From an uncultured Bacteroidota bacterium (GTDB taxonomy: Bacteria > Bacteroidota > Bacteroidia > UBA4408), in NCBI GenBank assembly GCA_903831265.1, contig CAIKXD010000174.1:44064-108063 (forward strand): a stretch of 64,000 bases of DNA, read 5' to 3'. The position numbers and the translations under genes were made by a program. Position 1 is the stretch's first letter. Each line of letters begins with the position of its first letter. The notes beneath the pieces are model-generated. The model did no database searches, was not told the origin of the DNA, and saw only the letters and a list, made by a program, of their open reading frames with translations. This document shows, in pieces, positions 10,459 through 31,122 of the stretch.

Positions 10459-10531
10459 AAAGCATAAAATCCTGTTGATTAATTCTAAAAAACAAATCGC
10501 TTTTTTAAGTTTAAAGCACAAACATAGCTTC

Positions 10532-11689
10532 ATGAAAAACAGTTTTATTTTTATATTGTATTTAGCAATGAGCTTTTCAAAAGGCTATGCGCAGCAAGTA
10601 GGACATGCAACCATCACATTAGTTGACCCCGCAAGAAACAACAGGCAAATAGCTACAGAAGTTTATTATCCAGCAACAACTGCTGGTAACAATACGCCTA
10701 TTGCACCTGGTGCTTTTCCTTTAATTACTTTTGGACATGGTTTTGTGATGACATGGAGCGCCTATCAAAACTTTTGGGATATGTTGGTTTTGGAAGGCTA
10801 TATTGTTGCCTTTCCAACCACCGAGAGTGGAATATCTCCCAATCACACCGAGTTTGGGAAAGATTTAAAATTTTTAATTTCTACTATGCAATCCAATGGA
10901 GCAGGAGCAGCGTTTACAGCAACCAGTGTGGGTAACACATCCGCCATTATGGGGCACTCCATGGGTGGTGGCAGTTCATTTTTAGCTGCACAAAACAATG
11001 CGCAAATTACCACCTTGGTTAACTTTGCTGCTGCAAATACCAACCCTTCATCAATAACAGCTGCGCTGCAAGTTTCGGTGCCTACCTTATTATTTAGTGG
11101 TGTTAATGATTGTGTTACACCTCCGGCACAGCATCAGGATTTGATGTACGATTCAACCAATGCAGCTTATAAAACTCAAATTAATATTACTGGCGGAGGA
11201 CACTGTTATTTCGCAAACTCAAATTTTAGCTGCACTTTTGGAGAAAGCACATGCTCTCCAAGCCCTAGCATTTTAAGAGAAGAACAGCAAGATGTAACCA
11301 ACGATCTTTTAAAACTATGGTTAGGCTATTTTCTAAAAAATGATTGCCAAGATGCTCAGGCATTTCAAGATTCGCTTGCTTCGAGTACAAGAGTTACATT
11401 TCGTCAAAATCAATCTATAGCATGCGTTACGGGTCTTCAGGCATCTGTAAATGCAGATGCTTGTAGTGTTTTTCCTAATCCTTTTTCTAACCAAGCAACC
11501 GTGGTGTTAAAAAATGAACCGATAATGAAAATTGAAGTTTACAATGGAATGATGCAACATGCAGGAGCATATTTATTTTCAAACGCTAGAAACAAGGAAA
11601 CAGTTGATTTTACGTACTTCGATAGCGGTATTTATTTTATAAAAGTAAATAATACCTACTGGGAAAAAATTGTGAAAGTGGGTTTTTAA
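10532..11689 (+). CDS. Secreted alpha/beta-hydrolase of the cutinase/PETase-like (dienelactone-hydrolase fold) polyesterase type, with a C-terminal T9SS (Por) sorting domain.
   Basis: Signal peptide MKNSFIFILYLAMSFS. Nucleophile elbow GHSMGGG as in TfCut2, LCC and IsPETase. NDCVTP...IYDS Asp region and GGGHCYFANS His region match the PETase catalytic triad context. C-terminal VFPNPF...IEVYNGMMQ Por tail. Confidence 0.6.
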   Translation: MKNSFIFILYLAMSFSKGYAQQVGHATITLVDPARNNRQIATEVYYPATTAGNNTPIAPGAFPLITFGHGFVMTWSAYQNFWDMLVLEGYIVAFPTTESGISPNHTEFGKDLKFLISTMQSNGAGAAFTATSVGNTSAIMGHSMGGGSSFLAAQNNAQITTLVNFAAANTNPSSITAALQVSVPTLLFSGVNDCVTPPAQHQDLMYDSTNAAYKTQINITGGGHCYFANSNFSCTFGESTCSPSPSILREEQQDVTNDLLKLWLGYFLKNDCQDAQAFQDSLASSTRVTFRQNQSIACVTGLQASVNADACSVFPNPFSNQATVVLKNEPIMKIEVYNGMMQHAGAYLFSNARNKETVDFTYFDSGIYFIKVNNTYWEKIVKVGF

Positions 11690-25831: not shown

Positions 25832-26752
25832 ATGAAAAAGCTAATCATTGCAGCATCCTTAATCATTTCAAGTTTGGGCTTGAAAGCACAACAGGATATT
25901 ATGCTTAGTCAATATATGTTTAATGGATTGTTCCTCAATCCTGCATATGCTGGCAGTCATAAGTACGTAAGTGCTACCTTACTTCATCGTAATCAATGGA
26001 CAGGATGGGATGGAGCTCCCAAAACTAACATTATTGGGATTGATGGTCCTTTAAGAAAACAAACGATGGGTTGGGGTTTAATTTTTGCTAACGATAAAAT
26101 TGGGCCAACTACACAAAATGATATTATGGCCAATTACAGCTACCACCTAAAACTAGGAAAAGGAAAACTTTCGCTTGGTTTAAGAGCAGGAGCATCGGTT
26201 GTTTCAAGTAATTTGCAAGGTGTTAGCACTGTAGTTGGTGGCGATGAAGCTTTTGCAACGAATATCAAAAGTTCTTTTTTGCCTAAGTTTGGAACAGGAG
26301 CTTATTATTATACAAAAAAGTATTATGCTGGGGTTTCAATACCAACATTGATAGCTCACGATCCTGCTAAAAACTTTAATTTTGATTTGAACAAATCATC
26401 CGATTCAAGAAGACACTACTTTATTACAGGTGGTTATGTATTTGATTTAAGTGATATGATAAAACTTAAACCATCGGTATTGGTAAAATATCAAAAAGCT
26501 GCGCCCATACAAGCAGATATTAACTGCAATGTTCTTATCAATAATGTGTTTTGGATAGGAGCATCTTATAGAACCAATGCAGCAGTTATTGGTATTATAG
26601 AATATCAAATAAATCCTATGTTTAGAGTTGGTTATGCCTATGATTACACTACAAATGCTATCAATCGTTATTCATCAGGTTCACACGAAATTATGATTGG
26701 AATTGATTTAGGCCATGATATTATGAAAAGTAAAAACCCTCGTTATTTTTAG
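25832..26752 (+). CDS. sprF: T9SS membrane protein of the PorP/SprF family, cognate partner for the upstream type-B CTD adhesin.
   Basis: 306 aa. Signal peptide then QQDIMLSQYMFNGLFLNPAYAG, the PorP/SprF family N-terminal signature. Lies 37 nt downstream of the adhesin. Confidence 0.8.
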   Translation: MKKLIIAASLIISSLGLKAQQDIMLSQYMFNGLFLNPAYAGSHKYVSATLLHRNQWTGWDGAPKTNIIGIDGPLRKQTMGWGLIFANDKIGPTTQNDIMANYSYHLKLGKGKLSLGLRAGASVVSSNLQGVSTVVGGDEAFATNIKSSFLPKFGTGAYYYTKKYYAGVSIPTLIAHDPAKNFNFDLNKSSDSRRHYFITGGYVFDLSDMIKLKPSVLVKYQKAAPIQADINCNVLINNVFWIGASYRTNAAVIGIIEYQINPMFRVGYAYDYTTNAINRYSSGSHEIMIGIDLGHDIMKSKNPRYF

Positions 26753-29184: not shown

Positions 29185-31122
29185 TTGGACGGTTCGGTCA
29201 GTTGCCCTTTGGGCATGGTTACAGGATTTATTTTTCATGGCTTTGGGCCACAATCATTCGTAGAGTTATCTGTTATAGGTGTGCTATTGATTTTCTCGGC
29301 TATAGTTGCAGCTGCAGAAGTCTCTTTCTTTTCTTTAGCACCGGCCGATTATGAACAACTTAAGCAAGATAATAGCACCCACGCACAAAAATTAATTCAG
29401 TTATTAGATAAACCTAAAAGCCTTATAGCCACTATTGTTATGAGTCATAATTTGGTGAATATTGGCGTGGTAATTATTTCTGAAATGCTTTTTAAACAAC
29501 ACTTCAACTTTAGTGATAGTCCGTTAACAGGATTTCTTATTAAAGTTGTGGTAGTAACTTTCGTAATTCTACTTATTGGTGAGGTGATTCCAAAGATTTA
29601 TGCAGCAAAAAATCCACGTGATTTAGCTTTAAAAATGGTGTATATTTTTGATATAGTTCAAAGATTGCTGACTCCGTTTGTTTGGATCCTTGTGGGTATT
29701 GCCGGTGCATTTGATAAGCGAATAAAACAAAAAACACCCGATTTGTCGGTAGATCAACTATCTCAAGCCCTTGAGCTTACTTCAAGTGAACACACGCCCG
29801 AAGAAGAAAGGAAAATCTTACAAGGAATTGTGGAGTTTGGAAATACAGAAGTAAGTCAGATTATGAAACCAAGAATTGATGTGGTTGCTTTTGATGAAAA
29901 TACTCCGTTTTTAGAAGTTATTGACCTCATAGTAAAAAATGGTTTCTCTCGAGTGCCAATTTATAGCGAAACTTTGGATAAAGTTGTTGGGGTGCTTTTT
30001 ATTAAAGATCTTATTGCTCATCTTGACAAAGGCAATGATTTTAACTGGCAAAGTTTATTAAGGCCCGCATTTTTTGTTCCTGAAAGCAAAAAGATTGATA
30101 ATTTAATGAAAGAATTTCAGAGCAAAAAAATACATCTGGCTATTGTTGTAGATGAGTATGGAGGGACTAACGGAATTGTAACACTCGAAGATGTTATTGA
30201 AGAAGTTATAGGTGAAATTAATGATGAGTTTGACGTTGAGGAGTTGGTTTATTCGAAGCTTGACGAAAACAATTATATTTTTGAAGCAAAAATTCCTTTA
30301 AATGATTTATATAGGGTGTTGGATATTGATGGTGAGGTTTTTGAAGATAAAAAAGGAGAATCAGACACATTAGCGGGATTTATTTTAGAATTGAGTGGAA
30401 AAATCCCTGTAAAAAATGAAAAAATTTCCTTCGACAATTATGTTTTTACGGTTGAATCGGTTGATAAAAGAAGGATAAAACGAATTAAACTTACAATACT
30501 TAATCACAACCAGCAAGGTACTTTTCATGATGGAGGAAAAATAATCCCGAGTGTTTTACTGCCATTCTTATTATTGATTTCTATTTTATTTACTTCTTGC
30601 GATGAAGATTATACACCAAAACCAAGGGGCTATTTTAGAATAGATTTGCCTACAAATACGTATCAAACGATTGCAACAAATTGCCCTTTTTCTTTTGAAT
30701 ACTCAAAATACGCCAACGCAAATGTATACGAGGGCAGCCAAATTGAAAACTGCTGGTATAATATCGATTACCCTAAGCTCAACGCCACAATACATTTAAG
30801 TTATTCACCTTTACAAGGAAAAGATGACTTAGAAAAACAATTAAGCAACTCAAGAACCCTAGTTTATAAGCATACTGTTAAAGCAGATGGTATTGAGGAA
30901 ATTCCAATCAGCTATGAATCTAAAAGTGTGTATGGATTAATTTACAATTTAAGTGGCAACAGTGCCTCTCAGGTACAGTTTTATTTAACAGACAGTACCA
31001 AGCATTTTTTAAGGTGTGCCTTGTATTTTAACTCAAGTCCCAATGCCGATTCTATTGCACCTGTATTAAATTACATTAGTAAGGATATTGATAGGTTTAT
31101 AGAAACTTTTCGCTGGCAATAA
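29185..31122 (+). CDS. gldE: GldE (DUF21-CBS pair-CorC/HlyC gliding motility protein) continuing in-frame, with no stop codon, into a GldD-like lipoprotein moiety. This is an apparent GldE-GldD fusion ORF (645 aa).
   Basis: N-terminal 4-TM DUF21. CBS pair (VVAFDENTPF...; HLAIVVDEYGGTNGIVTLEDVIEEVIGEI). CorC_HlyC region (FVFTVESVDKRRIKRIKLTIL). Then a hydrophobic stretch IIPSVLLPFLLLISILFTSC with LFTSC lipobox and a GldD-like mature part (DEDYTPKPRGYFRIDLPTNTY...). No in-frame stop between the two moieties. Confidence 0.7.
   Translation: MDGSVSCPLGMVTGFIFHGFGPQSFVELSVIGVLLIFSAIVAAAEVSFFSLAPADYEQLKQDNSTHAQKLIQLLDKPKSLIATIVMSHNLVNIGVVIISEMLFKQHFNFSDSPLTGFLIKVVVVTFVILLIGEVIPKIYAAKNPRDLALKMVYIFDIVQRLLTPFVWILVGIAGAFDKRIKQKTPDLSVDQLSQALELTSSEHTPEEERKILQGIVEFGNTEVSQIMKPRIDVVAFDENTPFLEVIDLIVKNGFSRVPIYSETLDKVVGVLFIKDLIAHLDKGNDFNWQSLLRPAFFVPESKKIDNLMKEFQSKKIHLAIVVDEYGGTNGIVTLEDVIEEVIGEINDEFDVEELVYSKLDENNYIFEAKIPLNDLYRVLDIDGEVFEDKKGESDTLAGFILELSGKIPVKNEKISFDNYVFTVESVDKRRIKRIKLTILNHNQQGTFHDGGKIIPSVLLPFLLLISILFTSCDEDYTPKPRGYFRIDLPTNTYQTIATNCPFSFEYSKYANANVYEGSQIENCWYNIDYPKLNATIHLSYSPLQGKDDLEKQLSNSRTLVYKHTVKADGIEEIPISYESKSVYGLIYNLSGNSASQVQFYLTDSTKHFLRCALYFNSSPNADSIAPVLNYISKDIDRFIETFRWQ
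30553..30600 (+). other. gldD: Internal signal-peptide-like hydrophobic segment ending in a lipobox (L-F-T-S-C, Cys codon at 30598..30600), marking the start of the GldD-like moiety.
   Basis: SVLLPFLLLISILFTSC|DED read directly from the translation. No upstream in-frame ATG/GTG start nearby; the only in-frame TTG would give a 9-residue signal. Confidence 0.55.

Follow-up and report, generated by a model that had tools for sequence, protein, structure and literature searches.

The 64-kb window (the whole stretch of DNA that was analysed, from an uncultured Bacteroidota bacterium) holds at positions 10532-11689 of the forward strand an open reading frame that encodes 385 amino acids without interruption; the reverse strand opposite this interval carries stops throughout. 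An upstream TTG start at 10475, which would give a protein of 404 residues, was dropped, and the ATG at 10532 was taken as the start because the homologs align from MKN... and share a conserved signal peptide end. The features of the gene, together with two T9SS and gliding genes of the same window, are as follows.

10532..11689, forward strand: complete gene, 385-residue precursor plus stop codon, from the open reading frame and its translation, with the ATG backed by homolog N-termini
10532..10591, forward strand: predicted Sec signal peptide, residues 1-20 (MKNSFIFILYLAMSFSKGYA), with a hydrophobic core and a predicted signal peptidase I cut before Gln21
10592..11425, forward strand: alpha/beta-hydrolase domain, residues 21-298, PETase-like (PF12740)
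10733..10744, forward strand: oxyanion motif G68-H69-G70-F71, 'HG' type, with the Phe71 backbone as predicted oxyanion residue (IsPETase Tyr87 column)
10952..10972, forward strand: nucleophile elbow G141-H-S143-M144-G-G-G147, with Ser143 as nucleophile and the Met144 backbone as predicted second oxyanion residue
11033..11035, forward strand: Ala168, in the column of IsPETase Trp185 (LCC W190, Thermobifida W155, PET30 Tyr) by MAFFT alignment
11108..11116, forward strand: catalytic Asp193 (invariant), then Cys194 (IsPETase Ser207 column) and Val195 (Ile208 column)
11201..11206, forward strand: catalytic His224 and Cys225 (column of IsPETase Ser238 and cutinase Phe), both invariant in the sets of 201 and 151 sequences
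11207..11281, forward strand: family-specific His-loop insert, residues 226-250, with Cys234 and Cys241 inside and a predicted helix at 232-240
11345..11425, forward strand: Cys272-Cys298, probable C-terminal disulfide, counterpart of C273-C289 in IsPETase and C262-C285 in PET30
11462..11686, forward strand: type A T9SS C-terminal sorting domain, residues 311-385, with seven predicted beta-strands (PF18962, TIGR04183)
25832-26752: PorP/SprF gene (E 1.5e-86), same window as the esterase
29185-31122: GldD domain, same window as the esterase

The nucleotide composition of the gene is native, and a 97%-identical gene with identical neighbours lies at a syntenic locus in the metagenome-assembled genome (MAG) GCA_947460475.1; the source hosts of the gene and its relatives are freshwater Bacteroidota. 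Its neighbours in the window are murI, PPK2, a SnoaL-like gene and an MFS gene, and no paralog was found within the 64 kb. Beside the homologs, murI, PPK2 and the SnoaL-like gene do not recur, and a single MFS gene is the sole exception. Neighbours that do recur in 80 homolog loci have housekeeping functions and are each limited to sub-clades; a locus of SusC/D type and a conserved neighbourhood indicative of a pathway were looked for there and not found. A terminator-like hairpin at 11438-11463 was dismissed, as it lies inside the reading frame and is the one such site found against a chance expectation of 1.5. The sigma-70 promoter model used for scanning is uninformative for Bacteroidota.

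Catalytic domain and family placement

PF12740 is the best-scoring hydrolase family for this protein, with 58.6 bits over residues 42-232 (cut-off 28; E 8.3e-16), and was matched by all 42 aligned homologs, with a best E of 8.7e-20. Conservation was read from a MAFFT alignment of 201 close homologs and from a diverse set of 151 sequences, with reference sequences checked against the PDB; the reference labelled 'TfCut2' is marginally nearer to the Thermobifida cutinases 5ZOA and 5LUI than to 4CG1, and was used as a generic Thermobifida cutinase. Ser143, Asp193 and His224 share columns with the triads of IsPETase (S160/D206/H237), LCC (S165/D210/H242), the Thermobifida cutinase and PET30. Besides the invariant Asp and His, residues H142, S143 and M144 do not vary in either set, and the oxyanion motif is nearly as constant in the diverse one, where G68, H69 and G70 are each conserved in at least 95% of the 151 sequences and position 71 is Phe in 140 of them. 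In the classical alpha/beta-hydrolase mechanism predicted here, His224 and Asp193 would activate Ser143 as the nucleophile, and Phe71 and Met144 would form the oxyanion hole with their backbone NH groups.

The predicted structure places these residues on the canonical elements of the fold. In the catalytic-domain model (pLDDT 91), which was built from a deeper alignment and replaced a first full-length model with a pLDDT of 79 and an insert below 50, the triad residues follow strands 5, 7 and 8, and Ser143 is located between strand and helix. The best structural matches of the model are PETases and cutinases. For PET30 and IsPETase a superposition at 1.3-1.5 A has been reported (PMC8767016); for our model the value is about 3 A, and the TM about 0.7. 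IsPETase, LCC and the Thermobifida cutinases have the same fold, an equivalent Ser-Asp-His and a Met after the Ser, and IsPETase further resembles our protein in the correspondence of Val195 with Ile208 and of Cys298 with C289. In contrast to these enzymes, our protein is missing an N-terminal segment of about 25 residues and has an extra 8-residue loop at 49-60, and its oxyanion motif reads GHGF where that of PETase is PGY.

The preliminary description of this gene had proposed, from motif neighbourhoods, a polyesterase that closely mirrors the catalytic triad surroundings of PETase and the cutinases. Assignment to a PETase/cutinase-like enzyme is borne out by the PF12740 alpha/beta-hydrolase domain, whose similarity is far beyond chance, and the Ser, Asp and His columns do match; the word 'closely' has to be given up, given 24% identity to PET30 (PDB 7PZJ) and 21-23% to IsPETase. 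Two of the three cited motifs are present as quoted, GHSMGGG at residues 141-147 and GGGHCYFANS at 221-230, and for the Asp context NDCVTP is found at 192-197 but IYDS is not: the protein reads DLMYDS, with the MYDS end at 205-208, and IYDS is the IsPETase string. It is also important to note that GWSMGGG, which had been ascribed to cutinases, LCC and PETase alike, occurs among these in IsPETase alone; the string of LCC and of the Thermobifida cutinases is GHSMGGG, as here.

In a PDB sequence search PET30 was the best match, aligned along its full length (E 3e-12), followed by IsPETase chains (about 1e-11), and a family profile reached PET30 at E 4e-22. All 60 PDB matches listed in the protein and family-profile searches were PETase/cutinase-type chains, and a search with just the N-terminal half still placed PET hydrolases and cutinases at the top of the 60 matches listed. 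The distance between PET30 and IsPETase (0.69) is nonetheless smaller than that between PET30 and this family (at least 0.77). By these sequence distances, IsPETase and PET30 group together to the exclusion of this family, which is not in the PET27/PET30 clade. It comprises at least 744 clusters at 50% identity in the Bacteroidota, almost all from MAGs, and on sequence it is a deep, Bacteroidota-specific subfamily of the PETase/cutinase-like Pfam family in which the aromatic clamp Trp is replaced by Ala.

These searches also bear on the alternative that survives best, namely that the protein is not a polyesterase but a lipid-type esterase akin to chlorophyllase or PAF-acetylhydrolase, acting for instance in phytol or acyl removal from algal or cyanobacterial pigments and lipids. 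The chlorophyllase profile PF07224 does match (33.2 bits against 26) and exceeds its threshold in all 42 members tested; chlorophyllase and PAF-acetylhydrolase share the 'HG' type of oxyanion motif, which GHGF represents here, and freshwater Bacteroidota hosts would suit such a substrate. However, PF07224 covers residues 54-167 only, whereas PF12740, with its far higher score, runs through the catalytic Asp and His, and the PAF-acetylhydrolase profile PF03403 is weak (17 bits, under its cut-off of 20), so that by sequence the protein does not group with either enzyme. Neither chlorophyllase nor PAF-acetylhydrolase chains appear among the 60 PDB matches listed per search; identity to plant chlorophyllase (8FJD) and Lp-PLA2/PAF-acetylhydrolase (5I8P) is 15-17%, and these enzymes are not T9SS cargoes. 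We therefore regard this reading as unlikely, and prefer a PETase-family esterase.

Substrate site and His loop

Position 168, the equivalent of IsPETase Trp185, is Ala in all 201 close homologs and in 144 of the 151 diverse sequences, the others having N, S, G or L; an aromatic residue occurs in none. The clamp motif of our protein is consequently Phe71-Met144-Ala168, lacking the aromatic residue at the Trp185 position, where characterised PET-active enzymes have Trp or Tyr (Tyr/Phe-Met-Trp/Tyr motif). Trp185, Tyr87 and the disulfide DS1 have been reported as critical to PET degradation by IsPETase (PMC10546322). The DS1 positions C203 and C239 correspond here to Gly190 and Tyr226, so the active-site disulfide of IsPETase is missing and the type II signature is not found. 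The Ser214 column holds His201, as in cutinases and not the Ser of PETase, and the column of IsPETase W159 holds His142, again the cutinase state.

These positions weigh on the second alternative, by which the protein would be a true, surface-displayed PET hydrolase of the kind of PET27, PET30 or IsPETase, a reading favoured by the shared Pfam family and fold and by the intact triad. PET27 (Aequorivita sp.) and PET30 (Kaistella jeonii, 7PZJ) are T9SS-secreted Bacteroidota PET-active esterases (PMC8767016), and both likewise combine a Sec signal peptide, a PETase-like domain and a PorC/type A T9SS domain; they also share with our protein the Phe at the Tyr87 position and the Met after the Ser, and PET30 has a C-terminal disulfide in the same region. 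His142 and His201 fit this reading too, and low-level promiscuous PET activity is common in this Pfam family. The likeness to the Bacteroidota PET-active esterases that was originally put forward thus holds for architecture, but it does not extend to membership of the PET27/PET30 clade. At the clamp position PET27 has Trp and PET30 Tyr, whereas ours is Ala and its clade never has an aromatic residue; the PET30 elbow is GWSMGGG and ours GHSMGGG; and PET30 has no Cys beside the Asp or the His and does without the insert of about 19 residues, all of which are found here. This large His-loop insert would also alter the cleft, and the low identity to PET30 and the outside branching point the same way. 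PET93 and PET94, the flavobacterial 'DLH' PETases, were ruled out as closer relatives on their Tyr-Met-Trp motif and their lack of PorC.

A further comparison is offered by PET38 from Fluviicola taffensis (WP_083800582.1), a freshwater Bacteroidota protein with a Phe-Met-Ala motif, a PorC domain and a very short N-terminus ahead of the conserved core, which was poorly expressed and had no activity on any substrate (PMC8767016). By its published description PET38 has the hallmarks of our esterase and would belong to the same family. At 447 aa it has a longer region between catalytic domain and CTD, and the Crocinitomicaceae members of the esterase family measure 450-461 aa. None of the 120 matches listed from a homolog search seeded with a 461-aa Crocinitomicaceae member was named Fluviicola, and our literature search found nothing on PET38 beyond the original paper. 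PET38 is the one published look-alike that has been assayed; its inactivity, though seen with poor expression, counts against a PET hydrolase, a reading that we consider improbable, and to some extent also against an active esterase. PET activity of the esterase is doubtful, and PET is not a likely substrate; the enzyme may hydrolyse PET or BHET weakly and promiscuously, as PET30, with Tyr at the clamp position, still shows some activity. The likeliest substrates would be hydrophobic or aliphatic esters, including aliphatic polyesters and lipid-like esters of plant or algal material, a class proposed from the missing aromatic clamp and from general family behaviour.

The second distinctive trait of the family is the insert, which adds about 19 residues directly after the catalytic His and is conserved across the family. 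The span from His224 to Gln252 measures 28 residues in 113 of the 151 diverse sequences and runs from 24 to 32 in the whole set, whereas IsPETase and PET30 have 9; type II enzymes have a beta8-alpha6 loop extended by 3, and the present loop is some 19 residues longer even than that and has its own cysteines. Conservation of the insert equals that of the core (0.595 versus 0.574), and in the catalytic-domain model it has a pLDDT of 72-83, with the helix present. Cys225 and Cys234 are invariant, and Cys194, found in 187 of the 201 close and 90 of the 151 diverse sequences, co-varies with Cys241: both are present in 84 of the 151, neither in 61, and only 6 are mismatched. On a neighbour-joining tree the joint state of these two sites changes 16 times, compared with 11 and 15 times for the single sites, so their changes mostly coincide.

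This co-variation suggests disulfides Cys225-Cys234 and Cys194-Cys241, at positions other than those of IsPETase DS1, and it is also compatible with the pairings 194-225 and 234-241 in the four-Cys forms. Two disulfides would probably staple the insert, which in turn probably changes the shape of the substrate cleft along one wall. Like DS1 of IsPETase, though from other positions, Cys194-Cys241 would link the loops that carry the Asp and the His. It has been reported that in the tannase/feruloyl-esterase family, which includes MHETase ('CS-D-HC'), a Cys directly after the catalytic His forms a triad-stabilising disulfide (PMC10546322). The invariant Cys225 after His224 resembles this arrangement by analogy only, as the MHETase-type family is a different one and the comparison implies no homology; there the disulfide partner is the Cys that precedes the nucleophile Ser, and in our protein it would be Cys234 in the His loop. 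As for the C-terminal bond, which type I and type II enzymes alike possess, Cys298 shares its column with IsPETase C289, LCC C292 and a PET30 Cys, and Cys272 lies two residues off PET30's partner Cys; because Cys272 is absent in about 35 of the 201 homologs, this putative bond is not universal.

Secretion and probable role

The cleavage context A↓QQ(V/I)GH is kept across 42 homologs, and the Gln at +1 agrees with the Bacteroidetes Q-rule (PMC5837995). At the other end of the protein, the Por-type C-terminal domain named in the preliminary description scores above the curated cut-offs of both PF18962, the Por/T9SS domain (29.0 bits versus 27), and TIGR04183 (27.1 bits versus 23). In this domain P315-N316-P317 and F369 do not vary, and G366 and Y368 hardly do (PNP and GxYF motifs); the linker at 299-310 ahead of it was modelled with low confidence. 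Solved T9SS CTDs are 3+4 beta-sandwiches (PMC11285876), with which the seven strands predicted at residues 311-382 agree. The T9SS of the host was read from the window genes, the core GldKLMN/SprA genes lying outside the window: besides PorP/SprF and GldD, the window has at least four other ORFs whose Por/CHU_C secretion tail passes the Pfam cut-off, with one CHU_C cargo and several Por_Secre_tail cargoes. By its sorting domain, its signal peptide and these host T9SS genes, the esterase is predicted to be a T9SS type A cargo. The Sec system would move the precursor over the inner membrane, with signal peptidase I cutting before Gln21; the type IX secretion system would then read the type A sorting domain and move the enzyme over the outer membrane, after which it would be released or held on the cell surface.

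Predicted secretion argues against a third alternative, a dienelactone hydrolase (EC 3.1.1.45) of chloroaromatic or lactone catabolism, as the JGI name 'dienelactone hydrolase' and a PF01738 DLH match of 22.7 bits (cut-off 21) would have it. Dienelactone catabolism is cytoplasmic, the DLH profile barely passes, covers only part of the protein (residues 138-231) and scores far below PF12740, and no catabolic gene neighbours were found at the locus or at the homolog loci; we consider this reading very improbable. That the gene encodes a non-catalytic binding protein or is decaying, an idea raised by the inactivity of PET38 alone and favoured by nothing specific, is hardly credible with a triad, elbow and oxyanion motif that are invariant over the sampled diversity of at least 744 clusters, an intact reading frame and a syntenic locus in the 97%-identical relative.

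Taken together, the sequence evidence makes it probable that the gene encodes an active, T9SS-secreted serine carboxylesterase of a distinct PETase-family subclade. For the single gene this result is modest: a credible, predicted secreted esterase with no new mechanism. A broader and more tentative proposal, possible but for now the less favoured outcome, is that the at least 744 clusters form a previously undescribed PETase-family 'type' beyond the types I, IIa and IIb of Joo, one that has given up the clamp and whose conserved, doubly disulfide-stapled helical His-loop insert acts as a small lid with another specificity. If this were true, uncultured freshwater and soil Bacteroidota would have in the new type a major extracellular esterase, so far overlooked, that acts on natural aliphatic polyesters and algal or plant lipid esters, and the biodegradable plastics PCL, PBS or PBAT would be possible substrates.

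It is important to consider that PET-hydrolase mining leans on family HMMs and on the motif neighbourhoods of Ser, Asp and His. Matches of this kind can fall in a very large Bacteroidota branch in which the catalytic machinery is kept, the PET-binding Trp is lost and the His loop is rebuilt. Characterisation of this branch would provide a guide to the HMM matches of low priority for PET, possible low-temperature secreted esterases for aliphatic polyesters, and a function for a gene found widely among the uncultured freshwater Bacteroidota that process algal and plant carbon.

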